Assembly (NCBI GenBank): GCA_017452475.1
Contig: JAFTMJ010000053.1
Span: 1,512 to 65,511 of the forward strand
Direction of reading: 5' to 3'
DNA length: 64,000 nt
Source: Clostridia bacterium
GTDB taxonomy: Bacteria; Bacillota; Clostridia; Oscillospirales; CAG-272
Part shown: one piece after another, positions 11,701 through 61,110 of the stretch
Position numbering within the stretch: the stretch's first letter is position 1
How the letters are laid out: each line of letters begins with the position of its first letter
The notes under the pieces: model-generated
Databases searched by the model: none
What the model was told of the DNA's origin: nothing
The model's input: only the letters and a program-made list of their open reading frames with translations
Made by a program: the position numbers and the translations under genes

Positions 11701-11791
11701 CGACGATGACAGCCTCGCCGCCTGCGCTTATAGAAGAGTTATGCTCGTTTTGTGGAAAATTATTTTCTAAATTACTCATTTCAATTCTCAC
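8735..11791 (-). CDS. YfhO-family polytopic membrane protein (putative glycosyltransferase), 1018 aa with acidic C-terminal tail
   Basis: More than 10 predicted TM helices followed by a large extracytoplasmic domain, the YfhO architecture. C-terminus is a DE-rich tail after a final TM helix. Confidence 0.8.
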   Translation of the reverse strand: MRIEMSNLENNFPQNEHNSSISAGGEAVIVGENIKGEPTRLGKLFDRAVGFFKSLPNRFVRSLSEKNFYYLSFCIPVVILYITYACMSMFPFGELSILTLDMDGQYVYFFEQLRDIYTGQESLFYTFERSLGGEFLGYFTYYLASPLSWLVVIFPETAITEAIMTMFALKSGLASLTFCIYLNKTRKRNSLGFVMFSVMYALCTYATIYQFNTMWMDALIWLPLIALGIEALVKEGKFKLFTISLAIAICSNYYIGYMLCIFVAFYFIFCILSKSNKENNLINEDRHLLKSFVRIALFSLIAIMMAAAIILSAYYSLSFGKSTYQDSGFDPDLRFDVIQLIAKMFVGSFDTVRSEGTPNIYAGTLMLIMLPLFYLSKKIKPREKIFYTVLALVFVVSFSVNTIDLVWHGFQAPIWFNYRYSFMLCFVLLVMAYRGYEELDEASTSCLGKISAALILLVILVQRLVLLKRYEWMNGGWVMLEVKPEYGVVWLSILFILVYLMLFVLRKHTKKYKLMNILLAVVVFVEAFANSAINWDGELKDGGCASRENYRTYEDKITLASEELYKLDSTFYRSEHTFFRKPNDNLLGNMNGISEFTSTFNAASFKLLERLGYNAQGQTMKYLSGNPVTDSLFGIKYVIGMEKEDTNGELPGFNSVSSLYGSITTKGGFVIYENPYSLPIAYLVDKNMEKVLEEKQFFYGDKSPFATANQLYSSMLGKDVTLFETCKYITIDDNLSYIDYDDKGGVDFRKEPSASVGSFFFKVTASYDGNIYMYLPTPYTTAATLTVDGKTISTNHFQDDNKRIIDLGYYKKGTTVTVNLDFSHYRIYLWDTKDYFVQVNDEELKNATDTLKAGGLKITEFSDTSFVGSVNSSKDGTIFTTIPYDSNWIVYVDGERVDTYMLLDSMMGFDITEGKHDIEIVYVHTQFWTGAAISLVGIALFVAMIFLDKIYRKKLKNKPAPSEGNDEALPMENAEDYGLEPYDEGIENVAQSDEEDVQVEHENETNDEISEDNNDIPS

Positions 11792-11978
11792 TCGGGATAA
11801 TATTTTTTATCATTTTTTCAAGCTTGACTCTTTCAAGGGTCAAGGCGCGGCCACACAAGGTGCAAACAATTTTAATGTCAGAGCCTACACGGCTGACACG
11901 GAAAAGCCTATTCCCACAGGGGTGAGGCTTTTTAAGCTCAAGCGTATCCCCTGCATTAATGGTGGGTATAGTTTTCAT
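11781..11978 (-). CDS. DUF951 family small protein
   Basis: MKTIPTINAGDTLELKKPHPCGNRLFRVSRVGSDIKIVCTLCGRALTLER matches the conserved KKxHPCG...CxxCG pattern of DUF951. The internal MKT start is preferred over the upstream extension. Confidence 0.7.
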   Translation of the reverse strand: MKTIPTINAGDTLELKKPHPCGNRLFRVSRVGSDIKIVCTLCGRALTLERVKLEKMIKNIIPSEN

Positions 11979-12088
11979 AAGCACCTCCAAAATGCAAAAT
12001 TTGCCATAATAATACATCATATATTATACCACGGTAAATGCGCAAAATCAAGTTAATTTAAAATATAAAAAAATTTACAATATAATAT

Positions 12089-12117
12089 TTGACATGCATA
12101 AATAATTGTGCTATAAT
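12089..12117 (+). promoter_or_regulatory. consensus sigma-A promoter for ruvC
   Basis: TTGACA - 17 nt - TGCTATAAT (perfect -35, perfect -10, extended TGn). Confidence 0.6.
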
Positions 12118-12149
12118 ATAATGAATTTGAAGTAAAGGAGGCGTTTCTT

Positions 12150-12647
12150 ATGGTTATTTTAGGTATCGACCCGGGCTTTGCCATTGTTGGCTGGGGCGTG
12201 CTCGAATGTGTGCACGGTAAGTTTCGTGTTATGGGTTACGGCTCTATACAAACCAAGGCGGGCTTGCCAATTGAGGAGCGCCTCAAGCAAATCTATGACG
12301 GCATGAATGTTATTGTTGATAAGTACAAGCCTGAGGTTATGGCAATTGAGGAGCTTTTTTGGAACACTAACCAAAAGACAGGTATTTGCGTTGCGGAGGC
12401 AAGGGGCACAATCCTTTTAGCCGCCCACCAAAAGGGCTTGAAGATATTTGAATATACACCGCTTCAGGTTAAGCAGGCGGTTGTTGGCTACGGCAGGGCA
12501 GAGAAAAAGCAGGTTATAACAATGGTTACCACCCTTCTTAATTTACCGAAGCCCCCAAAGCCCGATGACACGGCGGATGCCTTGGCATTGGCAATTTGCC
12601 ACGGTCACGCAGGCTCAAATGTGCTGAGCAAATATTACAGGATGTAA
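12150..12647 (+). CDS. ruvC: crossover junction endodeoxyribonuclease RuvC
   Basis: ILGIDPGFAIVGWGV, MAIEELFWNTN, catalytic DTADALALAICH. Confidence 0.95.
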   Translation: MVILGIDPGFAIVGWGVLECVHGKFRVMGYGSIQTKAGLPIEERLKQIYDGMNVIVDKYKPEVMAIEELFWNTNQKTGICVAEARGTILLAAHQKGLKIFEYTPLQVKQAVVGYGRAEKKQVITMVTTLLNLPKPPKPDDTADALALAICHGHAGSNVLSKYYRM

Positions 12648-12661
12648 ACGGAGAAAAGAGA

Positions 12662-13540
12662 ATGTATTTAGCTAATAATTGGAAGGACTATGAGCTTTTG
12701 GATACCTCTGACGGCGAAAGGCTGGAAAGATGGGGTAAGTATATTTTAATCCGTCCCGACCCACAGGTTATTTGGAAGGGTAAGCGCGAGCATAAGCTTT
12801 GGCGGGCAGCGCACGGTATTTACAGGCGCTCAAGCAGCGGTGGCGGCGCTTGGATAAAGAATGACGTGCCCGAGAAATGGACAATTAATTACGGCGAGCT
12901 TACCTTTAACCTTAAGCCGATGGGCTTTAAGCATACGGGTCTTTTCCCCGAGCAGGCGGCAAATTGGGATTGGTTTTCCAAGCTTATTGAAAAAAGGAAA
13001 CAAAAGGGCAAGACTGTTAAGGTTTTGAACCTGTTTGCATATACAGGCGGTGCAACCGCCGCAGCGGCTAAGGCAGGGGCAGAGGTTGTCCATGTTGATG
13101 CCTCCAAGGGCATGGTTGCCTGCGCTAAGGAAAATCTTGCATCAAGCGGACTTGGGGATGCACCTGTTAGGTACATTGTTGATGACTGCCGCAAGTTTGT
13201 GGAGAGGGAAATTCGCCGCGGCAATAAGTACGACGGTATTATTATGGACCCGCCTTCATACGGCAGGGGCCCCGGCGGCGAGGTTTGGAAATTAGAGGAC
13301 GCGGTGTGCGACTTTGTTTCCCTTTGCGAAAAGGTGCTGTCCGATGACCCCTTGTTTATGCTTATCAACTCCTATACAACAGGCTTAAGCGCATTGACAA
13401 TGGGCTATGTTTTGGATGTTGAGGTTGTTAAGAAGCATGGCGGCAGGGCAGAAACAGGGGAGCTGGCGTTGCCCGTTACACAAACAAAGAGCTATTTGCC
13501 CTGCGGCGCAAGCGCCCGTTGGGTTGCTAATGAGGAATAA
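12662..13540 (+). CDS. class I SAM-dependent rRNA methyltransferase (RlmI/YwbD-like)
   Basis: Start at MYLANNWKDY preceded by a GGAGAAAAG SD. VLNLFAYTGGATAAAA SAM motif and IIMDPPSYGRGP catalytic motif. The 12596 upstream extension overlaps ruvC and is rejected. Confidence 0.8.
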   Translation: MYLANNWKDYELLDTSDGERLERWGKYILIRPDPQVIWKGKREHKLWRAAHGIYRRSSSGGGAWIKNDVPEKWTINYGELTFNLKPMGFKHTGLFPEQAANWDWFSKLIEKRKQKGKTVKVLNLFAYTGGATAAAAKAGAEVVHVDASKGMVACAKENLASSGLGDAPVRYIVDDCRKFVEREIRRGNKYDGIIMDPPSYGRGPGGEVWKLEDAVCDFVSLCEKVLSDDPLFMLINSYTTGLSALTMGYVLDVEVVKKHGGRAETGELALPVTQTKSYLPCGASARWVANEE

Positions 13541-13542
13541 AT

Positions 13543-14415
13543 ATGTCAAATCCATTGATTAAGTTAGAAAATGTTTGCTTCAAATATCCTAACTCCGACC
13601 TTGAGGAAAACAACTTTGCAGTTAACAATGTTTCCCTTGAGATTATGGAGGGGGAGTTTGTTGCAATCCTCGGTCATAACGGCTCGGGTAAGTCCACAAC
13701 CGCAAAGCTGATCAACTTAATTCTTAATGCGGACAGCGGTAAGATTTATGTAGACGGCAAGGATGTTTGCGAAAAGGAGCTTTCCGACGAGGAGGCTTTT
13801 GAGGTTAGAAAAAAGATAGGTATGGTTTTTCAGAACCCCGACAACCAAATTGTTGCCACAGTGGTTGAGGAGGATGTTGCCTTTGGCCCCGAAAATCTGG
13901 GGCTCCCACCTGCCGAAATAAGAAAAAGGGTGGATGAGGCGCTTTCTATAGTAAATATGAAGGAGTATGCAAGGCACGCTCCCCACAAGCTGTCGGGCGG
14001 TCAAAAGCAGCGCATTGCCATTGCGGGCGTTATCGCAATGAAGCCAAAGTGTATTATTTTTGACGAGTCAACCGCTATGCTTGACCCACAGGGCAGAAAA
14101 GAGGTTATGAACACAATAAAGCGCCTTAACCGTGAGGAGGGGATGACTGTTGTGTTAATCACCCACTATATGAACGAGGCGCAGGAGGCGGACAGGGTGC
14201 TTGTTATGAAAAACGGCTCTGTTTACCTACAGGGCACGCCAAACCAAGTATTTTCCCAGCCTGATAAGCTGTGGAGCGCAGGGCTTGAGGTGCCGCAGAG
14301 TGTTGAGCTTATTGATAAATTAAACAAGGAGCTTTCTTTAAATTTACCGTTGCAGGTATACACCCAAAAGGAGTGCGCAAGGGTAATTATGGAGAAGCTG
14401 ACGGAGAATAAATAA
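13543..14415 (+). CDS. ecfA1: energy-coupling factor transporter ATPase EcfA1
   Basis: Walker A GHNGSGKST, signature LSGGQKQR, Walker B IIFDEST; position upstream of ecfA2-ecfT-truA. Confidence 0.9.
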   Translation: MSNPLIKLENVCFKYPNSDLEENNFAVNNVSLEIMEGEFVAILGHNGSGKSTTAKLINLILNADSGKIYVDGKDVCEKELSDEEAFEVRKKIGMVFQNPDNQIVATVVEEDVAFGPENLGLPPAEIRKRVDEALSIVNMKEYARHAPHKLSGGQKQRIAIAGVIAMKPKCIIFDESTAMLDPQGRKEVMNTIKRLNREEGMTVVLITHYMNEAQEADRVLVMKNGSVYLQGTPNQVFSQPDKLWSAGLEVPQSVELIDKLNKELSLNLPLQVYTQKECARVIMEKLTENK

Positions 14416-14418
14416 GGA

Positions 14419-15285
14419 ATGTCAATAGTTGAATTAAAGGATATTAACTTCATTTATGGCAAAAAAACCCCATACGAAATAAAGGCGCTTGATGATATAA
14501 ATTTAGCGATTGAGGAAAACTGTATAACGGGTATCATTGGACACACAGGCTCTGGAAAATCCACGCTTATACAGCTTTTGAACGGTCTTGCAAAACCAAG
14601 CAGCGGGGTTGTTTATATAGACGGCAAAAATATTTGGGAAAAGCCTAAGGAAATCAAAAAAGTAAGGTTCCTTGTGGGTATGGTTATGCAATACCCCGAG
14701 TATCAGCTTTTTGCGGATACGGTTAAGGAGGATATTGCCTTCGGTCCTAAAAATATGGGTCTTGACGAAAAGGAAATTGAGGAAAGAATTAAAAAGAGTA
14801 TAGAGTTTTGCGGTCTTAATAAGGATATTCTTGAAAAATCCCCCTTTGATTTGTCAGGCGGACAAAAAAGGCGTGTTGCCTTGGCAGGAGTAATGGCAAT
14901 GAACCCGAAAATTCTTGTTCTTGATGAGCCTGCGGCAGGCCTTGACCCAAAGGGCAGGCGCGAAATCCTTGGCGGAATTAAGGAGTACCAAAGGCAAAGC
15001 GGCACAAGCGTTATTATTGTCAGCCACAGTATGGAGGATATGGCAATGTACTGCGACAGGGCAATTGTTATGCGCCACGGCAAAATTGTTACCCACGGCA
15101 CCTGTGCCGATGTTTTTTCACAGCACAAGCTTTTGCTTGACGTGGGCTTGGATGTGCCGGAAATTACGGGAATTATACTTGAATTAAGGGCTATGGGCAC
15201 TGAAATTCCCGAAAATATATATACCGTTGACGGTGCTGTGGAAGCCATAAAGCATCTTTACCTGTCAAAAGAGAGGGGTGTATGA
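14419..15285 (+). CDS. ecfA2: energy-coupling factor transporter ATPase EcfA2
   Basis: Walker A GHTGSGKST, signature LSGGQKRR, Walker B LVLDEPAAGLD. Confidence 0.9.
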   Translation: MSIVELKDINFIYGKKTPYEIKALDDINLAIEENCITGIIGHTGSGKSTLIQLLNGLAKPSSGVVYIDGKNIWEKPKEIKKVRFLVGMVMQYPEYQLFADTVKEDIAFGPKNMGLDEKEIEERIKKSIEFCGLNKDILEKSPFDLSGGQKRRVALAGVMAMNPKILVLDEPAAGLDPKGRREILGGIKEYQRQSGTSVIIVSHSMEDMAMYCDRAIVMRHGKIVTHGTCADVFSQHKLLLDVGLDVPEITGIILELRAMGTEIPENIYTVDGAVEAIKHLYLSKERGV

Positions 15286-16120
15286 TATGGAAGCATCCTT
15301 TGGTGTATATTATGAAAAGGATACGGTAATTCACAGGCTTGACCCAAGGACAAAGCTGCTGTTTATGATTGCGTTTATAGTATGCATCTTTGTTGCCTCA
15401 GATATTTATGCCTATATAATGTTAATCGGCATAACGGTTGCATCTATATTATTTAGTAGAGTACCAATACTTATGGTGCTAAAGGGGCTAAAGCCAATAT
15501 TCATTATCGTAATCTTTACAACAATTTTGAACCTGTTCTGGACAGACGGCACAACAGTGCTTGCCACTTGGAACGTTATACCTGATTTTTGGACAATCAC
15601 AATTTATAAGGAAAGCCTGATAAGGGCGGGAATATTAGCTCTAAGAATTATAATTCTTATGGCTTGCACAAGCCTATACTTTTCCTATACAACAACTCCT
15701 ATTGAGTTAACAGACGGAATTGAAACGGGCTTGGGATTCCTAAAGAAAATAAAAATACCCATCCACGAGTTCGCAATGATGATGACCATTGCCTTGAGGT
15801 TCATTCCAACCCTTGTTGATGAAACAACAAAGATTATGAACGCACAAAAGGCAAGGGGCGCGGACTTTTCAAGCGGGGGCTTGATAAAGCGCGCAAAAGC
15901 ATTAATTCCAATCATAATCCCTCTGTTCGTTTCCGCCTTCCGTAGGGCAGATGAGCTGGCAACGGCTATGGAATGTCGCTGCTACCACGGCGGCAAGGGC
16001 AGGACAAGGATGCGCGCCCTAAAGATGAAGGCAAGGGATTATATATTCTTGCTTCTAACAGGCGCTATGATTGCAGGCGTTATTTTGCTTAACATCTACG
16101 CAACAGGATATAAGGTTTGA
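15278..16120 (+). CDS. ecfT: energy-coupling factor transporter transmembrane component EcfT
   Basis: CbiQ-like polytopic protein (HRLDPRTKL, ARGADF, RRADELATAME); overlaps the ecfA2 stop. Confidence 0.9.
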   Translation: MYDMEASFGVYYEKDTVIHRLDPRTKLLFMIAFIVCIFVASDIYAYIMLIGITVASILFSRVPILMVLKGLKPIFIIVIFTTILNLFWTDGTTVLATWNVIPDFWTITIYKESLIRAGILALRIIILMACTSLYFSYTTTPIELTDGIETGLGFLKKIKIPIHEFAMMMTIALRFIPTLVDETTKIMNAQKARGADFSSGGLIKRAKALIPIIIPLFVSAFRRADELATAMECRCYHGGKGRTRMRALKMKARDYIFLLLTGAMIAGVILLNIYATGYKV

Positions 16121-52776: not shown

Positions 52777-53343
52777 ATGACAGAGCTTGAAAAAATAGAG
52801 TATGCCAAATCCTTTATTGATAAGCTGGCAAACGGAATAAATCCGTTGGATGACAGCCCCGTTCCCGAGCGTGATATTGTAAATAATGTAAGACTTTCAC
52901 GTTGCTTTTTCTATGTTTCCGATATTTTGCGTCAGGTTGTTGAAAATGGCGGAATAACAATGGAAAGAGTGGCAAAGCCAAAGAAAAAACCGTTTTCGCT
53001 GTCCCAAGAGGAGCGCGAAAGCATTAAAATCTCCGACACTCCCTTGACAATCAGCGAAATAACAAAATATTTGAATTCTCTGATAGACGAGGAAAAGACC
53101 AAAAAGATTACAACAAACGCAATAAGCAATTGGCTGGTAGAAATGGGCTTTTTGTGCGTGATAACCTACGACAACAACAAGCATAGAAAATCACCAACAG
53201 AGCAAGGCATAAAAATCGGCATTTTAACCGAAGAAAAAATGGGTCAATATGGCAAATACATAGCAGTGCTTTATTCCCGATCAGCCCAGCAATTTATCTA
53301 TGACAACTTAGATGCAATCACATCTCAAAAGGAAACTCAATAA
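52777..53343 (+). CDS. hypothetical protein (188 aa)
   Basis: ORF with a GAAAGAGG SD, 13 nt after the GH gene; no motif recognised with confidence. Confidence 0.5.
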   Translation: MTELEKIEYAKSFIDKLANGINPLDDSPVPERDIVNNVRLSRCFFYVSDILRQVVENGGITMERVAKPKKKPFSLSQEERESIKISDTPLTISEITKYLNSLIDEEKTKKITTNAISNWLVEMGFLCVITYDNNKHRKSPTEQGIKIGILTEEKMGQYGKYIAVLYSRSAQQFIYDNLDAITSQKETQ

Positions 53344-53344
53344 C

Positions 53345-53381
53345 AAAAAGGCATTTCCGCAAAACGGAAATGCCTTTTTTG
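53345..53381. terminator. bidirectional intrinsic terminator (left copy)
   Basis: AAAAAGGCATTTCCG-CAAAA-CGGAAATGCCTTTTTT. Confidence 0.8.
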
Positions 53382-53422
53382 TTGAATCAAATCAACAAAT
53401 TCAAATACCTACCGTACCTAAA

Positions 53423-53473
53423 TTAGTTGTTCTGATTCTTGATGGAATTTTCGTAAGATTCTACCATCTTCTT
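53423..53473 (-). pseudogene. orphan 3' fragment of alpha/beta-type SASP gene (last 16 codons + stop)
   Basis: Encodes KKMVESYENSIKNQNN*, identical to the C-terminus of the intact SASP at 58860-59066; no upstream SASP coding sequence. Confidence 0.85.
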
Positions 53474-53600
53474 GTCTTTATTATCATAGCAAAAGCCAGT
53501 AAAAACAATCAAATAAATTCAAGAGGTTTTAAAGTGAGTAAAAAGATTTTTGTTGTACCTTTATTGTAGCTTGAGTACATTAAATATTCAAGTTGAAAAG

Positions 53601-53662
53601 GGTGCAAAATTGGGTGAATTAGAGGTAATTTAAGGTGCAAAATAGTGCATAATGGTGCAAAA
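53601..53662 (+). repeat. three direct GGTGCAAAA motifs (iteron/operator-like)
   Basis: GGTGCAAAA at 53601, 53634 and 53654, with related GTGCATAA at 53645, inside the island about 130 bp from the left repeat. Confidence 0.6.
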
Positions 53663-53665
53663 GGT

Positions 53666-53950
53666 TTAAAGTATCTTGTACCAAAGCATGTATGTGATTT
53701 CAATTTCTTTTCTTTCAATACTACCTTTAACAACAAAGTCAACTTCCTTGCACTCTGTAAAGCTACTTTTATACTCACCTTGCTTATAAAGTATTGGATA
53801 GCAGTAGGGAATACAGTATTCTATTATCCTTTCCCATTTAGAGTTGGGATAGAGAATTAAGTCTTCACCAGAGTCAGATATAAATCCAATACCTGACTTT
53901 TTATAGCTGAAGTCATTTTCTTTTCTAAGACAGTAAGCCACTTTAATCAT
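53666..53950 (-). CDS. hypothetical protein (94 aa), island-encoded, divergent from the DUF488 operon
   Basis: ORF with a strong SD (GAAAGGAG, 8 nt before ATG); no recognisable motif. Confidence 0.55.
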   Translation of the reverse strand: MIKVAYCLRKENDFSYKKSGIGFISDSGEDLILYPNSKWERIIEYCIPYCYPILYKQGEYKSSFTECKEVDFVVKGSIERKEIEITYMLWYKIL

Positions 53951-54190
53951 CTTTATTTACTCCTTTCTTTTTAAATTTTTTATTTCGCCCGCAAAACAAA
54001 AAAGGCACAGTTATCGTTCAAAATAACTGTGTTTTTAAATATGGTAACAGATGTCAACAGCCTCTATAACCTCAAATTTAAGCAAAAGAAAATTTCTGCG
54101 TTAAAATCCTCAACTTATAGTTTTCAGCCGAAATTTCTCCTGTTTACATCTGCGATAACTGTGCCACAACACCAAAGGCGAAATAAGATA

Positions 54191-54219
54191 TTGAAAACAA
54201 TTACAATTGATGTTATACT
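54191..54219 (+). promoter_or_regulatory. sigma-A type promoter of the DUF488 operon
   Basis: TTGAAA - 17 nt - TGTTATACT (extended -10), 35 nt upstream of the first ATG. Confidence 0.55.
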
Positions 54220-54254
54220 AGTAATAGTAAGTTTTGTAAAGAGTGGGTTAATAA

Positions 54255-54869
54255 ATGGAAAATTCAATTTACACAATAGGATATACAGGCTATAGCTTAG
54301 ATGAATTTATTCAAGAATTGAAAAATAAGGGAATAAATGTTGTAATCGATGTTAGAAGTTCACCGTATTCAGAACGTTATCCTGATTACAATAGAGATAA
54401 TTTGGAATCAACATTGGCTTCAAACAGAATATATTACAGGAACTATGTAAAAGAATTTGGAGCTAGACAGGATAACAGAAATTTTTATTCTAGGGATGGA
54501 TATTTTGATTTTGAAGTTTTCGCAAAATCAGAGCAATTTTTGTCTGGTGTAGAAAAGATTAAAAATAGTGTGGCAAAGGGATATAGGGTTCTTTTCCTCT
54601 GCGCAGAAAAAGAGCCTATACAATGTCACCGAACAATATTAGTATCAAGAGCTTTTCACAAACTTGGATATAACGTCATCCACCTTAAGCCTAATAACAT
54701 AGCTATAAATCACGGTGAAATTGAAACACAACTGTTGAACATGTATTTTCCAAATAGATATCAAAGGGATATGTTTTCAAATGATGATAAAACAGATGAT
54801 GATTATTTGATAGATGCTTACAGAATGCAGAATAGAAAAATAGGATATAAGATAGAAGGGGAAGAGTAA
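54255..54869 (+). CDS. DUF488 family protein (204 aa)
   Basis: IYTIGYTGYSLDEFIQELKNKGINVVIDVRSSPYS and LFLCAEKEPIQCHRTIL match the DUF488 (YeaO-like) pattern. Confidence 0.8.
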   Translation: MENSIYTIGYTGYSLDEFIQELKNKGINVVIDVRSSPYSERYPDYNRDNLESTLASNRIYYRNYVKEFGARQDNRNFYSRDGYFDFEVFAKSEQFLSGVEKIKNSVAKGYRVLFLCAEKEPIQCHRTILVSRAFHKLGYNVIHLKPNNIAINHGEIETQLLNMYFPNRYQRDMFSNDDKTDDDYLIDAYRMQNRKIGYKIEGEE

Positions 54870-55303
54870 TGATTATTTGTACAATGGGGTTTGCTCAAAA
54901 AAATGCCAAAACATTTTTCGAATTGCTAAAAGAAAACAAAGTGGAAGCTTTAATTGATGTTAGATTAAATAATAAATCCCAATTAGCTGGTTTTACAAAG
55001 GGAAATGACCTTGAATATTTTTTACCTATACTTTGTGATTGTGAATATTATCATGAAATTGATTTTGCTCCTACAAAAGAAATACTGGATTCTTATAAAG
55101 ACAAAAAGACAACGTGGATAGAATATGAAAATGCATTTATTCCATTAATAGAAGAAAGAGGAATAAAAGCACTTTTTGATGAAAAATACAGAAAATATAA
55201 CTGTGTTTGCTTGCTGTGCAGTGAGCCAACACCGGAACAGTGCCATCGAAGATTGGTTTCAGAATATGTAGCGAAAAAGAACGACATAATCAAACACATT
55301 TAG
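54869..55303 (+). CDS. DUF488 family protein (144 aa), divergent paralog
   Basis: ICTMGFAQKNAKTFFELLKENKVEALIDVRLNNKS and CLLCSEPTPEQCHRRLV. The ATG shares its A with the upstream TAA. Confidence 0.8.
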   Translation: MIICTMGFAQKNAKTFFELLKENKVEALIDVRLNNKSQLAGFTKGNDLEYFLPILCDCEYYHEIDFAPTKEILDSYKDKKTTWIEYENAFIPLIEERGIKALFDEKYRKYNCVCLLCSEPTPEQCHRRLVSEYVAKKNDIIKHI

Positions 55304-55312
55304 GAGTATTTA

Positions 55313-57397
55313 ATGTACAAGGAAATAGTTATCTTAACCAAGTCAAAAAAGAACAATAAATATTGCGTTGCTGGTATAGAATTGAATGCAAGAAAATGGA
55401 TAAGACTTGTTACTTTTGATAAACTAAGCGACGGAGCATTAGATGATTTGGATCTTGAACTTGCAACAGGTGGTTGCGCTGAATCCCTTGATGTAGTTAG
55501 AGTATCAATTATAAAAGAAGTACCTGTTGGTTGTCAAACGGAGAACAATCTAATTGAAAGAAGAAAGAAATTATATAAGATCGGAAAAATGTCATTAAGA
55601 GAACTTTTTGACTTAGTTAATCCAATTGATAGTCCGTATATTTTTTTAAACGCCAACAGGTATTTGGATAATTTAGATGGGTTGGACTACTCCTTGGTTT
55701 TGGCAAAAGTTACGAATATGAGAGTATACTACAATGATAATGGTAAGAGAAAAGCGGATTTCCAGTATAATATCGAAACGTATGCTCAAATTAGTGTTAC
55801 AGATCCAATTTATCTTGATTTGTTTGAAGAAACAGGGACGAAAAACGAACTTTTCATTGATAAAGCTTACGTAGTTGTTAGTATACCACACAAGCCACAT
55901 AATGCAACAGGATTCTACTATAAGTTTTTAGCAAAAATTTTTCCCGTAGATGCTTTCTTTGATGAGGATGAGAAATTCGATTTTACTAAACCACATTCAA
56001 TTGACGAGATAATTGACACATTTGAATTTCCAATTCCGGTGAAAAAGAGCTTTTGGACAAGTGATTTTTACCATATAATCGAAGATGTTACCGAACGAGG
56101 AACAACAGGTGTGGATTATAAGGGCGTTTCACCGTACGGAAGAGGGAGAACGTTTAGCTTGGAAGATAGTGATCTGTATGTGTGTGATGACAAAGTTAGT
56201 TTAGTATATAAACATAAGAAAAATGAAACTGTTAATAATGACAATATAGATTTTGATTTTGAGAAAACATATACAATCAATGAAATAGTAGAACGTTTTG
56301 AATTTCCAATACCCATAAAAAGAGATATTTGGTTTAATGATTTTTACTACAACATTGAAAGCATATATAGTGATTTTACAAAAGGAACATCGTATTTATG
56401 TGGAGAGTGGGAAAGCGCTAGAAGAACCTTCAGCATAAACGATAGTGGTTTTTATGTTTGCAAGGATAAGGGACGACTAAGGATAAAAAGTACTTTCCAA
56501 AAGAATATTAAAACCAAAGAAACTGTTGAGCAAAAAAATACTGAAACGATTGAAAACAATTTGGTTTTAGATTATAAAAAAAGCTATTCATTAGAGTTTC
56601 TTTTAAAACACTTGTCTCCTCCTTTTGCGGTTAAAAAAGGAGATTGGTCACGTTCTCGTTATTTCGTAGTTAAAGGGAAATTGGGCTCTAATGCGATTGG
56701 TGATGTATATTTTAATACTCGAAAAATTCAACATGATATGTTCAACTTGCAATTGAAATTCTATTTGTGTGCTGATACGGTAATTAAAAACTCTGATGGT
56801 TTAGTTGAAGAAAAGAAAAACGTAACGGAGACGTTGGTTAAAAATAAACCAAACAAAAAAAGAGAGTTTTCTCAAAGCATGATTGAAAAAACGGGCACAG
56901 CATCAAAACCGGAAAATATGCAAAAGGAAGAGCAAACCAAATATAGCGAAATAGAGCTTTTGCAGAAAGAATTGAGCTTAAAACCTGGAGAATCTATCGT
57001 TTACGTATTAAGTGATACTGGTTGGCAAGAGGCTTTGTTTTTGGGTTTACAAAAGGTTTCTGGTGAGTATATAGCAAAAGTAAAAAAATCAGATTTTGAA
57101 ACTTCATATAGTTATCCTAGTGAGGTCGTTACTATTAATGATCGAGGACTTAAAAAAAGTGAAAGAGAAATTGAAGAAGAAAAATTAAGAAAAAAGCAAT
57201 TAAAAGAATTGAACGCGAGAATTAGAACTCAAAACGAAAATAGAATAAAAGAAGAAGCAGAAAGAACTATAAAATTTGAAGAGGAACTGAAACAGGGAAA
57301 AAGTTCATATGGCAGTGGAACTGATATTAATCATGTGTTAAGGTGTGATGGTATTTGTTCTAATTGCAAAAGGTGCGAAGATTGTCTAAAGGGATAA
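55313..57397 (+). CDS. 694-aa multi-domain protein of unknown function (N-terminal domain, 3 tandem ~80-aa repeats, coiled coil, C-terminal Cys cluster)
   Basis: AGGAG SD; starts 9 nt after the DUF488-2 stop. Internal repeats at aa 222-300, 313-392 and 418-493. KE-rich heptad-like segment at aa 614-662. C-terminal CDGICSNCKRCEDC. Confidence 0.8.
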   Translation: MYKEIVILTKSKKNNKYCVAGIELNARKWIRLVTFDKLSDGALDDLDLELATGGCAESLDVVRVSIIKEVPVGCQTENNLIERRKKLYKIGKMSLRELFDLVNPIDSPYIFLNANRYLDNLDGLDYSLVLAKVTNMRVYYNDNGKRKADFQYNIETYAQISVTDPIYLDLFEETGTKNELFIDKAYVVVSIPHKPHNATGFYYKFLAKIFPVDAFFDEDEKFDFTKPHSIDEIIDTFEFPIPVKKSFWTSDFYHIIEDVTERGTTGVDYKGVSPYGRGRTFSLEDSDLYVCDDKVSLVYKHKKNETVNNDNIDFDFEKTYTINEIVERFEFPIPIKRDIWFNDFYYNIESIYSDFTKGTSYLCGEWESARRTFSINDSGFYVCKDKGRLRIKSTFQKNIKTKETVEQKNTETIENNLVLDYKKSYSLEFLLKHLSPPFAVKKGDWSRSRYFVVKGKLGSNAIGDVYFNTRKIQHDMFNLQLKFYLCADTVIKNSDGLVEEKKNVTETLVKNKPNKKREFSQSMIEKTGTASKPENMQKEEQTKYSEIELLQKELSLKPGESIVYVLSDTGWQEALFLGLQKVSGEYIAKVKKSDFETSYSYPSEVVTINDRGLKKSEREIEEEKLRKKQLKELNARIRTQNENRIKEEAERTIKFEEELKQGKSSYGSGTDINHVLRCDGICSNCKRCEDCLKG

Positions 57398-57496
57398 AAA
57401 GGTGAATGAATTTGATTTAATTGATTGTTTCAGAAAAAACGAAAAATAAAGTAAACTTTAGAATTACAAAAACAAGCAAGTACATACTGCAATAAA

Positions 57497-57525
57497 ATAG
57501 GGCTATTAATTTAGCCCTTTTTCTT
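57497..57525 (+). terminator. intrinsic terminator after the three-gene operon
   Basis: AGGGCTA-TTAATT-TAGCCCT followed by TTTTCTTT. Confidence 0.6.
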
Positions 57526-57623
57526 TACTTTCGTATCAAGACAAGCACACGCCCACGACACAAAGTAGAAAATCGGTATGGTTTTGGTCCTTTTGGGCTT
57601 TGTTCGTTTTTTTTGAATTATTA

Positions 57624-57652
57624 TTGACTTGAATAATCTAATGTGATAAAAT
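57624..57652 (+). promoter_or_regulatory. sigma-A type promoter of the HipA-like kinase gene
   Basis: TTGACT - 17 nt - TGATAAAAT. Confidence 0.5.
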
Positions 57653-57700
57653 AAACTATAATGATGGTACACTAAATTGGCTAAAAAGGAGGGAGTATTG

Positions 57701-58750
57701 ATGACTAACAGAAATTATGAAATTTTAAGTGAAAATACCGTTGTTGCAATTTGGCAAAATAACAAGCTAAATGTACTCAACGAAGCTTTGTTACCGTTAT
57801 ATCTACGCAAGATTCAAAATGCAAATATGTGGCTCGAAACACGTGCAATAGATAGTCATAGAGCAAACTCTCGCCTTTTGAAAAAAGCCCTTAGATTAAC
57901 TGACAAGGACGATATTTCAACCGTAATACATGTTAACGGAGCCACTATTACAGATAACTATTGGATTCGAGAAATCGGATCAGAGTTGACTTATGACGAT
58001 GTTAAATTTGAGGACGATTATTTTTCCAATCTTGCTCTTAAAGGAAACTATGATAGCTTTAATCGTGCTGCAAACAGTAAGCGTTCAAAAACTCCAGAGC
58101 TTACCAATGTAGGAAGCTTTGAAAAGTGTTGGAAGTTGCGCGACGGAAAGTGGTGGATGTACAAAAAGGCAAACCACGAAGAGATGTTTTCTGAATTGTT
58201 TATTTATGAGCTTGGAAGAGAGCTTGGATTTGATATGGCAATTTATGAGCGTGGAGAAGGGTATATTAAATCTCTTGATTTTACAGATTCAGCATCGGTA
58301 AACTTTGAACCTGCTTCAACATTTATGGGAGATAACGAGGAGTATATTGATGTTATAAAAGCACTTGAAAAACTTTGCCCTCAAGCAATCTCCGATTATG
58401 TTAAATTGATATTCTTAGATACTATTTGTGCAAACCCGGACAGACATACAAATAACTTTGGACTTTTGCGTGACGTACAAACAGGAGAACTCCTCGGACT
58501 TGCACCAAACTATGATAACAATATGGCGCTGATTTCCCGTGGATACCCATCAAAAACAGGCAACAAAGATGTTCTTATAACAATGTTTAATGAACTCTTG
58601 GAAGAATATCCAACCTTCCGTTCTTTCGTTCCAAAAGTAACAGAAGATACAGTTAGAAAAGTTATTAACAAACTTAATATGAAGGTCAAATCACAACTTA
58701 TTGTTGAGTTAGTAACAAAACGCTACGAAATGATTGTCAAGAAATTTTAA
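57701..58750 (+). CDS. HipA-like serine/threonine kinase (349 aa), no cognate HipB/HipS gene
   Basis: Start MTNRNYEIL follows AAAAAGGAGGGA. Catalytic-loop-like ICANPDRHTNNFGLL and APNYDNN match the HipA_C D-x-H-x-x-N and YD motifs. Confidence 0.75.
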   Translation: MTNRNYEILSENTVVAIWQNNKLNVLNEALLPLYLRKIQNANMWLETRAIDSHRANSRLLKKALRLTDKDDISTVIHVNGATITDNYWIREIGSELTYDDVKFEDDYFSNLALKGNYDSFNRAANSKRSKTPELTNVGSFEKCWKLRDGKWWMYKKANHEEMFSELFIYELGRELGFDMAIYERGEGYIKSLDFTDSASVNFEPASTFMGDNEEYIDVIKALEKLCPQAISDYVKLIFLDTICANPDRHTNNFGLLRDVQTGELLGLAPNYDNNMALISRGYPSKTGNKDVLITMFNELLEEYPTFRSFVPKVTEDTVRKVINKLNMKVKSQLIVELVTKRYEMIVKKF

Positions 58751-58778
58751 AAGACCTGTCATCAAATCCATGTAATCA

Positions 58779-58910
58779 AACGAAAAAGCATTTCCGCAAA
58801 ACGGAAATGCTTTTTCTGTTGAATCAAATCAACAAATTCAAATACCTACCGTACCTAAATTAGTTGTTCTGATTCTTGATGGAATTTTCGTAAGATTCTA
58901 CCATCTTCTT
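58779..58910. repeat. right direct repeat (attR-like), includes terminator and functional SASP 3' end
   Basis: Near-identical to 53342-53473; hairpin AAAAAGCATTTCCG-CAAAA-CGGAAATGCTTTTT. Confidence 0.9.
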
Positions 58911-59066
58911 AACCATCTGACCGCCGATAGAGCCTGCCTGCTTAGAGGTCAAGTTACCGTTGTAGCCGTTCTGGTTAAGAGTAACACCTACTTCGCTAGC
59001 AGCCTGCATCTTGAACTGGTCAAGAGCAGCCTTAGCTTCAGGAACTGAGATGTTGTTCTTAGACAT
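58860..59066 (-). CDS. alpha/beta-type small acid-soluble spore protein
   Basis: 68 aa. KMQAASEVGV...LTSKQAGSIGGQMVKKMVE matches the SASP alpha/beta signatures (K-x-E-x-A-x-E-x-G and G-x-V-G-G). AGGAG SD. Confidence 0.9.
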   Translation of the reverse strand: MSKNNISVPEAKAALDQFKMQAASEVGVTLNQNGYNGNLTSKQAGSIGGQMVKKMVESYENSIKNQNN

Positions 59067-59219
59067 AGTAAACTCCTGTTCATTTAATCTATATTATCGA
59101 GCATAGGCGATTTGCCACCAAACCGCCTAATCAACAAGACCGCCCGATAACAAATCTCAAATGCTCTGTAATTATTATGTTGATAAAATTCAAAAATATA
59201 AATGCCATTTTTTAGATAA

Positions 59220-59360
59220 AACAAAAACTTGCGGCCTCTAATACCCCAATGTGAAAATACGTGCAAGCACATAGGATACGAAACGGTTGAAACTATACTA
59301 AATGTGTACTCGCATATAACAGATGAGGTAATGAAAAACGCAGCTAAGACAATAGATTAA
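59220..59360 (+). pseudogene. C-terminal remnant of a tyrosine recombinase/integrase
   Basis: In-frame translation IGYETVETILNVYSHITDEVMKNAAKTID* matches the LGH-x-x-x-x-T-x-x-x-Y-x-H box II region with the catalytic Tyr. An upstream in-frame stop at 59217 leaves no N-terminal or catalytic core. Confidence 0.65.
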
Positions 59361-59721
59361 CTATGGGAGCGATTACAGATGATTATAAAGACGAAAGAAA
59401 ATTAGCAAATATAAAATCAACTAAAAGAAGCAAATTTCAAGCTCCTAAAAGCGAACGCATATACAAGGACACAGGTCCCGAAACCGCCTGCCAAGGCACC
59501 TATAAGTCTTAAGAAAACGGCGAAATCAATCCACAGCATAATCGAATCTATATATAAAAGCGAGTCCTAAAAATCAGCAATAGCTTTCTTTAACAGACTT
59601 GAATCCAATCCAAATATGTAGTAAAATAAATTTAGAAAAATTTTCAAAAAATTTGAACCTTTTTTGAAGAAATGTGTTTATATAGGTGTGTACACGAGAA
59701 ACTTGAAAGGAGGGGTAGGCT

Positions 59722-60978
59722 ATCAAACGAGATTTTGAAGAGGTAATCAAGGAAAACGCAACTTGGCTACTTAGATATATAAAAAGTAAAATTTCAAACA
59801 AGAGCTTATGCGAGGACATGTTGCAAGAAATCATGTTAAAGGCATATAAAGCATACGATGATTATATTGAAAATGGTACATTCAAATCTTGGCTTTTGCG
59901 TATTGCAAGTAATTATTTGAATAATTATTATTCAAGAAACTCGGTTGAATGTTTATCTCTTGACTATGAGGACGAGGAATTTAATTCGTTCTACGGTTAT
60001 CTTTCAAATGAAGAATTAAGTCCTGAGGAAAAGCTTATACACGATGAGCTTATTTCAAGTGTTATGCTACAAATATCTAAATTACCGAAAAAACAAAGTC
60101 AAATGATAATCTATCGATACTTTTACGATATGAGCATAGAGGAAATATCAACTAAAATGAATATTCCAAAAGGTACAGTAAAAAGCACTACTCATTATGC
60201 AATAGAAACACTTAAAAAACACCTTAATGTAGATAGACAAGGAGAAAAAATTATGGAATGCAAGGAAATCTATAAATACTTATTTATTTATGCCAACGGA
60301 ACGATTCAGCCTGATCACAAAAAGCTCGTTGAAGAGCATATAAAAACCTGTCCAAAATGCAACGATATTGTAGTCGCTTTACAAAAGCTCATTCCTACTA
60401 TGGTGTTCGCACAGGAGGATGAAATGACGTATTTTAGCATATCGTTCCCTGAATTAAAGTTAGCATTTACAGGTATTAGATATGAGGTGGAAAATTTTGA
60501 ACTATGTGAAAAAGCTCTCGAAGAGTGGGGCGGAAATATTCCTGACGATGAGAATAATATGTCAAGCGGCTATACTAAAAATTGTGAAATTTTAGGAGTT
60601 TTTGATAACGAAGGAAATGAAATTAAAATGAAAATTTGCCAAGAAACCGAAACGCATTATAGAACAAAACCAACCTATATGAAAAAGGTATATAGGTATA
60701 TGTGGAATTATTGTGCGTTCTTGAATAAGGTAGCCGGAGGCTACATAAGAAGCTCCAAGGAAGCACCCAATCTATATTATGGTTCGTTTAATAACAGTTT
60801 GGGTGGAAATGCAAAATCCGCGCTTTATCAAGCAATACCAAAAGAAGCTGAAAATATTAGAATCAAACGAGGAAATGGCGTTATAGATTGCGACACATAC
60901 AAATTTGCATATGTTGACCGATATGTAACAGAGGAAGAAACAATAAGACTTGAATATTCGTATTTGTTAAACAAATAA
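59722..60978 (+). CDS. ECF-type sigma-70 factor fused in frame to a zf-HC2 anti-sigma domain and a soluble C-terminal domain; start codon uncertain
   Basis: Sigma region 2 (CEDMLQEIMLKAYKAY...FKSWLLRIASNYLNNYY), region 4 (LPKKQSQMIIYRYFYDMSIEEISTKMNIPKGTVKS), then MECKEIYKYL...HIKTCPKCN with no intervening stop. GAAAGGAGGGG SD at 59705-59715. The only codon at proper spacing is ATC (59722); the first ATG is at 59818. Confidence 0.6.
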   Translation: MKRDFEEVIKENATWLLRYIKSKISNKSLCEDMLQEIMLKAYKAYDDYIENGTFKSWLLRIASNYLNNYYSRNSVECLSLDYEDEEFNSFYGYLSNEELSPEEKLIHDELISSVMLQISKLPKKQSQMIIYRYFYDMSIEEISTKMNIPKGTVKSTTHYAIETLKKHLNVDRQGEKIMECKEIYKYLFIYANGTIQPDHKKLVEEHIKTCPKCNDIVVALQKLIPTMVFAQEDEMTYFSISFPELKLAFTGIRYEVENFELCEKALEEWGGNIPDDENNMSSGYTKNCEILGVFDNEGNEIKMKICQETETHYRTKPTYMKKVYRYMWNYCAFLNKVAGGYIRSSKEAPNLYYGSFNNSLGGNAKSALYQAIPKEAENIRIKRGNGVIDCDTYKFAYVDRYVTEEETIRLEYSYLLNK

Positions 60979-61110
60979 AAATCGCGAGTTCAAATTCGGC
61001 ACTCGTTTTTGCCTTATTATGTTGAAAGAATGCACATATTATGATACAATAGATTTAAAGTAATATGCTTGCGATGTTATATTTTAAAAATTATTTAAAA
61101 AGGAGAGTCT

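Follow-up and report, generated by a model that had tools for sequence, protein, structure and literature searches.

How does a block of foreign-looking DNA come to lie, cleanly bounded, at the 3' end of a sporulation gene when it encodes nothing that could have placed it there? The question is raised by a 64,000-nt stretch (the window) of contig JAFTMJ010000053.1 from a Clostridia bacterium of the CAG-272 lineage (assembly GCA_017452475.1, positions 1,512 to 65,511), in which an AT-rich island lies between a 188-aa gene and the 68-aa gene of an alpha/beta-type small acid-soluble protein (SASP). An earlier note, made from the sequence alone, had read the island as the footprint of an element that integrates site-specifically at the end of the SASP gene (its 3' end) and restores its target, and had seen no recombinase gene inside it. 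From a comparison with related loci (given L numbers where they must be told apart), we consider it probable that the island is what decay has left of an integrative element using a large serine recombinase (LSR), with its attachment point in the SASP gene 16 codons before the stop codon.

The direct repeats and their target gene

The island is delimited by two direct repeats of 132 nt each (53342-53473 and 58779-58910), which align without gaps at an offset of 5437 bp and with 4 mismatches. All of the mismatches (4/4) fall within the first ~45 nt, in the hairpin region, and the other 87 nt are identical (87/87); past either end of the repeat the in-register identity is 28-35%, the background level. 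Each copy comprises a strong bidirectional terminator and, at its end, 51 nt that repeat the final 16 codons and stop codon of the SASP gene; on the minus strand these 51 nt encode KKMVESYENSIKNQNN and a stop. The hairpins have 14-15-bp stems, fold with -23.6 to -25.5 kcal/mol whichever strand is considered (z = -6.4 to -8.4), and occur twice in the whole 64-kb window. The left hairpin serves the upstream 188-aa gene, whilst the right one is common to the SASP gene and to a gene for a HipA-like kinase that converges with it.

The right copy of the repeat leads into an intact 68-aa SASP open reading frame (ORF), and the left copy is an orphan. In these respects the alignment agrees in every particular with the earlier note, which had given the repeat length, the offset, 4 mismatches without indels, and a content of one terminator and 16 SASP codons; the completeness of the SASP ORF at the right copy is likewise supported by its Pfam match (SASP, 1.8e-28). 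A SASP pseudogene continuing past the left repeat was ruled out: identity there is at background, the alignment score lies in the range of shuffled sequences, and there is no SASP-like frame.

The 5305 bp between the repeats have a GC content of 32.4% vs 43.1% for bases 1-53000, and a tetranucleotide distance of 0.43 vs 0.135 ± 0.016 (maximum 0.197) for background segments of the same size. The contrast in composition with the flanks that had been noted is therefore real, but it does not end with the island, as low GC runs on past the right repeat into a separate, variable segment (59250-61100, 32.7% GC).

Empty sites in relatives

The earlier note had proposed a search of related genomes for an empty site, and such sites were found both in the same species (L010) and in related species (L014 and L015). 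L010 is a 532-nt contig of the same species from another sample, in which the 188-aa gene is joined to the SASP gene via a single copy of the repeat; identity to the window is 99% at the 3' end of the 188-aa gene and 98% in the SASP gene. We take this join to be physical and not a collapse of the repeats, because the contig, to judge by its name, was assembled with k = 141, a length greater than that of the 132-nt repeat. In L014 and L015, the order UvrD-GH2-GH39-188aa is followed directly by the SASP gene, convergent and with one terminator, in flanks 78-81% identical to those of the window. From the three empty sites it follows that the ancestral state was the 188-aa gene and the SASP gene converging on a single terminator, and that the island is an insertion.

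The hairpin of the empty site in L010 is the left-repeat variant, differing from the left copy at 1 position and from the right copy at 3. Eight other contigs that have a HipA-like gene beside the SASP gene carry the right-repeat variant, with 0-1 mismatch. Since the empty site carries the same variant, the left repeat would be the resident-type copy and the former host-side half of attL, the left attachment site.

Intact elements with a recombinase at the same junction

A 97%-identical homologue of orf94, the leftmost gene of the island, is present on at least 12 contigs, ten of which were read (L168-L177). Where the flanks are covered, the order in the orientation of the window is UvrD-GH2-GH39-DUF1295, a terminator and SASP tail, an LSR gene, a 54-aa gene, orf94 and cargo. 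The element thus occupies the locus of the island on the chromosome of a related species, whose flanks are 78% identical to those of the window. The LSR of L168-L173 has 561 aa with Resolvase, Recombinase and Zn_ribbon_recom domains; the cargo of the L168-type element includes HNH, AAA_14/DUF4143, an ADP-ribosyl toxin and a DnaG-type zinc ribbon. The 54-aa gene could, at a guess, encode a directionality factor.

Window positions 53469-54186 align with L168 over 719 nt at 96.9% identity, and similarity ceases where the left repeat begins its boundary with the island. A separate segment, L168 12563-12703, is homologous to the window's repeat itself. The 2080 bp between the two in L168 (10483-12562) are missing from the window; this segment contains the 54-aa gene and the complete LSR gene, together with the element-side arm of the junction. 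At the ends of this deletion there is imperfect microhomology (AAaAA-ATG / AAgAAgATG).

The LSR gene of L168 is positioned such that its frame crosses the junction (marked ^) into the SASP tail: the ORF ends ...KSRTGPLS^KKMVESYENSIKNSK, the SASP gene supplying its last 15 codons, stop codon and terminator. When the junctions are aligned, the window (left junction, 53473/53474), L168, L096 and L183 all break after ...CAT(C/T)TTCTT, at one and the same nucleotide; L010 and L014, with their empty sites, run on past this point with AACCAT(C/T)TGACC. Across the junction the SASP site is ...CATCTTCTT^AACCATCTG, and the predicted centre of attB is ...GATTCTACCATCTTCTT^AACCATCTGACC. Site-specific integration can accordingly be regarded as established by homology, because a close relative of the island's left end has a recombinase of the serine, not the tyrosine, type exactly at the junction and at the same locus; the earlier placing of the insertion in the SASP 3' end is upheld by the same relative.

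Every ORF between the repeats was screened against Pfam, NCBIfam, PADLOC and PHROGs. By these screens and by tblastn with the related LSR, integrase, transposase and excisionase genes are absent between the repeats, as had been noted from the ORFs alone, and the ORF screens detected no relaxase or transfer genes there. Neither an ORF nor a remnant of the LSR (by tblastn) or of the 54-aa gene was found anywhere in the 64-kb window.

Other loci have related junctions. In L096-L099, from a more distant species with flanks 75% identical, a 5.2-kb island lies between GH39 and the SASP gene; the L096 island holds a gene for a 923-aa Superfamily 1 (SF1) helicase and a HipA-like gene. Its repeat is 121 nt long and 98% identical (~115 nt identical), and ends at the same SASP nucleotide as in the window, whilst its left junction keeps ~8 codons of a recombinase 3' end (KVRTGFHS^KKMIES). 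The HipA-like module is 92.5% identical between L096 and the window vs 75% for the flanks, and this similarity indicates recent horizontal exchange. A shorter remnant, L093, has the HipA-like gene alone, flanked by a 67-nt terminator repeat. Divergent LSRs, 45-52% identical to the L168 enzyme and both with SASP-like tails, were seen beside a MobA/MobL relaxase in L178 (an IMG/VR contig; ending KKMIDSYKMQ and stop) and beside host genes, e.g. a tadA-like deaminase, in L183 (MT837325.1; ending KKMIKAYEESMK and stop). On the strength of these sequences we conclude that one LSR clade targets this position of the SASP gene. A limited search of the literature gave no description of an SASP-targeting LSR clade with a borrowed target tail.

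A model for the history of the island

These comparisons suggest the following history. In the intact relatives the LSR gene lies outermost and reads outward across the junction, with its last 15-16 codons, stop codon and terminator supplied by the SASP gene. The other end of the element would carry its own terminator and SASP tail just past the HipA-like gene. Integration would then rebuild the SASP gene from a host 5' part and an element 3' part and leave the host tail orphaned beside the 188-aa gene, and the 132-bp direct repeats would be the outcome. In the circular form of the element, the LSR ORF would be completed by the tail copy that the element itself carries. A later deletion of 2080 bp, with one end at the attachment junction, would have removed the LSR gene, the 54-aa gene and the element-side half of attL, leaving orf94, an operon resembling the PADLOC system PDC-M45, and the HipA-like kinase gene fixed in place.

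The host-side halves of both junctions are intact in the window, but where the element-side half of attL should be, the window has, from the very first base, DNA that in the intact element lies ~2 kb further in. Excision by the element's own enzyme would no longer be possible and, because that half of attL is gone, excision by a related LSR acting in trans would most likely fail as well. With the deletion of the LSR module making mobilization in trans unlikely, homologous recombination between the 132-nt repeats would be the only route of loss left, and its product would be the sequence type seen in L010. Among the three fates that had been envisaged for the island, a degenerate or fixed state is thus the one that our data support. 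Restoration of the target, as the earlier note had it, holds in so far as the gene is intact and an orphan end lies opposite; that the element was the source of the tail copy is something we infer and do not observe. The target-restoration model does fit the linkage of the repeat variants to the HipA-like gene and to the empty site, the architecture of L096, and shorter remnants such as L093. It is also plausible biologically. SASPs belong to the forespore, and an element that had to leave in order to rebuild its target, as skin, SPbeta and gin do with mother-cell genes (PMC5595907, PMC5499854), would forfeit its place in the germ line.

Several observations weigh against this history. LSR integration alone makes no long repeats. 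The SASP-tail copy carried by the element is deduced from the two decayed copies only. Although the right variant is linked to the HipA-like gene in eight contigs, both copies of the repeat are of the resident type, also in the fast-evolving spacer (87/87 nt identical in the window and ~115 nt in L096). A recently imported copy would be expected to differ, and therefore either a long residence in the lineage or gene conversion is needed. The 2080-bp deletion ends exactly at the attachment junction, which would not be expected of a random deletion. The left junction of the island was seen in the window and in L001/L011 only, and those contigs may share one sample. Finally, the repeat or island DNA was found on no phage, plasmid or viral contig searched: island DNA had no match among phages and, among plasmids, only a 234-bp match to DUF488 (69%, Acinetobacter); viral contigs, scanned with exact patterns of the hairpin and of the SASP tail and with a degenerate version of the tail, gave nothing; and a scan of Joint Genome Institute (JGI) metagenomes for the repeat pattern likewise gave nothing.

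If the history is right, the paradox of a cleanly bounded island with no recombinase disappears: it would reflect ordinary decay of an LSR element, of which an intact relative occupies the same locus. It would also offer a route by which defence islets lacking a recombinase arise beside core genes, through integration, deletion of the recombinase module and retention of the cargo. One LSR clade appears to have targeted the SASP tail repeatedly, its recombinase borrowing the last codons and terminator of the target gene, and this could supply a new, short and conserved attB for spore formers.

A broader proposal can be made only tentatively, and we would sooner bet against it than for it. An LSR clade undescribed so far may target the C-terminal coding region of alpha/beta-type SASP genes across gut Clostridia, carrying a spare tail and terminator in place of gene-rebuilding excision; the spare tail would keep both the SASP gene and the LSR frame intact whether the element is integrated or excised. 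The island in the window would be a fossil of this clade, and such fossils might seed recombinase-less defence islets beside SASP genes. SASPs are proteins of the forespore. Because the forespore is the germ line, excision could not rebuild the gene as it does for mother-cell genes, since it would cost the element its germ-line place.

Alternative explanations

The same repeats could still be usable attachment sites. The island would then be a remnant mobilizable in cis or in trans, similar to a cis-mobilizable element (CIME) or a satellite, that is still excised and moved by a family LSR from a co-resident or incoming element. Intact elements with the same target do circulate in related gut Clostridia, the host-side sequence is intact at both junctions, L096 retains part of the element-side arm of attL, the same species has an empty site, and CIMEs are an established concept where integrative and conjugative or integrative and mobilizable elements have decayed (PMC5704250). 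At the left junction, however, DNA that belongs 2 kb inside the element stands on the element side from the very first nucleotide, and the LSR gene is absent from the entire 64-kb window. LSR sites need ~20-25 bp on either side of the crossover, and attL should therefore be dead, so that we think continued mobilization distinctly unlikely. Homologous recombination might instead have brought the island in, for example through a single crossover of a circle carrying a copy of the resident SASP tail, or through illegitimate integration with one-sided homology, the repeats being the homologous segment of an islet gained or exchanged at a hot spot. This would suit the resident type of both repeat copies, the gradual fall in identity between strains along the HipA-like gene (typical of homologous exchange), the sharing of boundary modules among relatives with varying cargo, and the 35-67-nt repeats that flank HipA-like genes at other loci vs 0/236 random control positions. 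It leaves unexplained why four loci, in different species and amid different neighbouring DNA, have the junction at one and the same nucleotide, and why in relatives an LSR gene stands at the exact junction and reads into the SASP tail; as a replacement for site-specific integration it is a poor candidate, to which we attach only a slim chance. Homologous recombination probably acts on top of site-specific integration, by exchange of cargo and deletion, and not in its place.

The repeats might also have no connection with a mobile element, being an old segmental duplication of the terminator and SASP tail, maintained by gene conversion, between whose copies unrelated genes have gathered. The repeat is near-perfect and species-specific in two species, and the chance of all four mismatches (4/4) falling in the hairpin region is (45/132)^4 = 0.013. 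We nevertheless give this almost no credence in view of the empty sites in the same species and two nearer relatives, the compositionally foreign interior, the 97% identity of the left end to an LSR element of another species whose flanks are only 78% identical, and the 92.5% identity of the HipA-like module to L096 vs 75% for the flanks. We had also considered the HipA-like gene as a recombinase-less cassette that duplicates terminators, on the basis of 35-132-nt repeats round this gene at several loci and an apparent circular permutation of a hairpin-plus-box module (described below). For the SASP-linked loci this idea is superseded by the LSR finding, which does not account for the repeats at a MatE locus (L162) or in L109. 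An integron cassette with an attC site was rejected, the repeat extending 87 nt past the hairpin into SASP coding sequence, as were Xer/dif-type recombination and a long target-site duplication, the repeat being far longer than the hairpin and no such sites being evident. A 40-nt repeat in L153 we judge to be a chance similarity of terminators, given the host genes between the copies. Rfam identified no RNA family in or around the island, the nearest scores (PyrR, 30 bits with a gathering score of 54; V_AS7, 45 with 90) both being sub-threshold.

Gene content of the island

The island retains one gene adjacent to its left end, a three-gene operon and a solitary kinase gene (Table 1).

Table 1. 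Features of the island and of the genes on either side of it, in window coordinates
Feature	Coordinates	Strand	Evidence and remarks
Upstream neighbour, 188-aa gene, host flank outside the island	52777..53343	+	123 relatives; weak sub-threshold DUF6262 match
Left direct repeat	53342..53473		Terminator hairpin ~53337-53385, spacer, orphan SASP 3' fragment (16 codons + stop, minus strand, 53423-53473)
Left end of the element	53469..54186		719 bp, 96.9% identical to the LSR-bearing element of L168-L177 (blastn, alignment)
orf94, 94 aa, conserved, without assigned function	53666..53950	-	15 homologues, best 97% identical
DUF488 protein, 204 aa	54255..54869	+	Pfam DUF488 4.7e-21; PDC-M45B 8.9e-49
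DUF488 / DUF488-N3a protein, 144 aa	54869..55303	+	Pfam DUF488 5.9e-19, DUF488-N3a 2.2e-07; PDC-M45C 3.2e-53
DuOB-domain protein, 694 aa	55313..57397	+	Pfam DuOB 1.9e-39; PDC-M45A 3.5e-26
Terminator hairpin (57499-57518) and conserved ~35-65-nt 'box'	57499..57586	+	Module boundary common to other elements
Solitary HipA-like kinase, 349 aa	57701..58750	+	Pfam HipA_C 8.2e-08, DRHTNN motif; PDC-M03A 1.4e-11
Right direct repeat	58779..58910		Terminator hairpin 58776-58822, spacer, functional last 16 SASP codons + stop
SASP gene, alpha/beta-type, 68 aa, integration target	58860..59066	-	Pfam SASP 1.8e-28

The protein from orf94 has no match in Pfam, NCBIfam, PADLOC or PHROGs. Between this gene and the DUF488 operon is a divergent promoter region with a long imperfect palindrome (53969-54197), the arms of which are TTTTATTTCGCC.../...GGCGAAATAAGA and GGCACAGTTATCG.../...CGATAACTGTGCC. 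The palindrome region is 97% conserved in the LSR element of L168, where different cargo lies downstream.

All three components of PADLOC PDC-M45, A (DuOB) and B and C (the two DUF488 proteins), are present in one operon and in canonical order. From these profile matches the DUF488/DUF488/DuOB operon is a candidate anti-phage cargo, and the very rare DuOB/DUF488 operon carried here should be viewed as a candidate defence system only. Among 5.8 billion proteins the DuOB protein has 2 distant relatives (40-44% identity), both of which (L101 and L102) sit in the same three-gene operon at other loci. The DuOB domain makes up residues 3-209 of the 694-aa protein; the remainder has internally repeated segments and a Cys-rich C-terminal motif (CDGICSNCKRCEDC), and gave no match to a family or solved structure. 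The literature searched held no functional information on DuOB or DUF488, and a sequence search of the PDB was uninformative for the DuOB, HipA-like and 188-aa proteins.

The HipA-like gene is the last gene of the element and has its own promoter (57624-57652). Its product has >2600 homologues, and the predicted fold matches the kinases HipT, CtkA and HipA and nothing else (probability 0.97-1.0, from a low-confidence model with pLDDT 62); a role for this protein as the recombinase was rejected on the same fold matches. No gene for a HipB-type helix-turn-helix (HTH) antitoxin lies upstream of it in the window. Another allele of the same species, carried by contigs L002-L005, does have an HTH gene (77 aa, in L003), which overlaps its HipA-like gene at the start of the latter. 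Compared with window 57701-59249, the repeat and SASP gene of this allele are 100% identical, whilst identity in the HipA-like gene slides from 98% at the 3' end to ~73% at the 5' end, which is a recombination gradient.

The terminator hairpin (GGGCTATTAATTTAGCCC) with its 35-65-nt box recurs at module boundaries, at window 57499-57586, in L160-L166, and at L168 6438-6527 and 7942-7998. Relative to the HipA-like gene it is upstream in the window and L096 and downstream in L160/L162, and the L168 element contains it two times. Copies of the box flank the HipA-like gene of L162-L166 as a perfect direct repeat of 35 nt. The hairpin-plus-box may be a recombination or exchange point for cargo modules.

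Comparison with known systems

Elements of the LSR type that intervene in sporulation genes include skin in sigK (recombinase SpoIVCA), SPbeta in spsM (SprA/SprB), vfbin in spoVFB and gin in gerE (GirC/GirX) (PMC5595907, PMC5499854). In these known elements a mother-cell gene is split and is rebuilt by developmentally timed excision (PMC5595907, PMC5499854). The island resembles this group in being an LSR-type element inside the coding sequence of a small sporulation gene; defective remnants are common in both, as is a recombinase gene at the very end of the element by the attachment site, and with gin the island shares an AT-rich composition relative to the host and a cargo that is not of phage type. 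Unlike these elements, the target here is a SASP gene, entered 16 codons from the stop codon, and it is kept intact (68 aa, with a full Pfam SASP match) by a second copy of the tail and terminator, so that no excision is needed. The window also has no recombinase or directionality factor, and excision of this copy is not possible.

Integration into a gene 3' end with restoration of the target is familiar from tyrosine integrases, as in phage 21 and e14 in Escherichia coli icd and ICESt1/ICESt3 in Streptococcus thermophilus fda. As there, the direct repeats consist of roughly 100-165 bp of a gene 3' end with few mismatches, the gene is functional in the lysogen, and the orphaned original end lies on the far side. 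The enzyme of the island's relatives is instead an LSR, whose own frame crosses the junction into the duplicated tail.

CIMEs are decayed elements flanked by att sites (PMC5704250). The island is similarly a decayed integrative element without a recombinase, flanked by former attachment-site repeats at a gene 3' end and with intact relatives directed to the same target. It differs in the deletion of the element-side half of attL, with which the retention of both att sites is probably lost, and no accretion with another element was seen at the SASP site. The island has a single specific insertion position and is, as judged by alignment, continuous with a bona fide LSR element (L168); the window copy encodes no LSR, and we therefore file it as a decayed derivative and not among functional LSR elements.

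With regard to cargo, the locus is similar to the defence hot spots of integrative elements and prophages, having a slot downstream of a conserved promoter region that is filled by different genes in each relative. PDC-M45 and PDC-M03 are PADLOC candidate systems, the former with no function reported in the literature searched. In comparison with a HipBA toxin-antitoxin module, the window copy has a HipA-type kinase but lacks a gene for a HipB-type partner.

Surroundings of the island

The 188-aa gene to the left belongs to a conserved family with 123 relatives in species-representative genomes, and is syntenic with UvrD-GH2-GH39 in L013-L015. Its family is often found beside variable DNA (loci L013-L092), and the region downstream of the GH39/188-aa gene is variable. 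Several loci with this gene have a UvrD-like helicase gene ~1.7 kb downstream. In L061, the 188-aa gene is inside an 8.5-kb element flanked by 3' halves of tRNA-Pro, close to genes for a tyrosine integrase and AbiEii/RloB-like proteins. In L013, the closest syntenic species representative, there is no SASP gene downstream of the 188-aa gene; positions 10560-15300 hold instead a tRNA-Pro 3' half, an HTH gene, a 304-aa gene and a 927-aa gene (PLD/helicase-like by eye). This is another defence-like island at the same hot spot.

To the right of the SASP promoter is a 22-nt fragment of a tRNA-Pro(GGG) gene (59228-59249; CTTGCGGCCTCTAATACCCCAA), followed at ~59271-59357 by the C-terminal remnant of a tyrosine integrase (..IGYETVETILNVYSHITDEVMKNAAKTID). 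Integrase C-termini in L061 and L133 share 55-66% identity with this remnant, and the ORF in L061 has a match to Pfam Phage_integrase. In strains L002-L005 the sequence departs from that of the window exactly where the tRNA-Pro fragment ends. Positions 59228-59360 are the relic attachment site of a second, unrelated element, and the remnant was rejected as the missing recombinase of the island because it belongs to this separate, decayed, tRNA-Pro-linked element. A second AT-rich block follows (59250-61100, 32.7% GC), with an ORF at 59818-60978 for a fusion of sigma-70 (regions 2 and 4) and a zf-HC2 anti-sigma domain; the homology to sigma region 2 seems to extend upstream of the listed ATG, where there is no obvious canonical start codon.

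Two further observations concern other loci. The place of the SASP-type terminator hairpin is taken, in L096 (11085-11665) and L100 (5612-5975), by an element ~360-580 bp long whose ends are inverted repeats (GGGGCTGACACA...TGTGTCAGCCCC); this element looks like a miniature inverted-repeat transposable element (MITE) sitting in or substituting for terminators. In L101, a homologous DUF488-DUF488-DuOB operon (8946-11758) is directly downstream of lysS, and in L184-L186 (~10001-10288) an orf94 homologue and a gene for a LexA-like repressor are found directly downstream of the same gene. L101 and L184-L186 share a DnaK-DnaJ-...-GreA-LysS neighbourhood, which suggests that the position downstream of lysS is a second insertion site of related elements.

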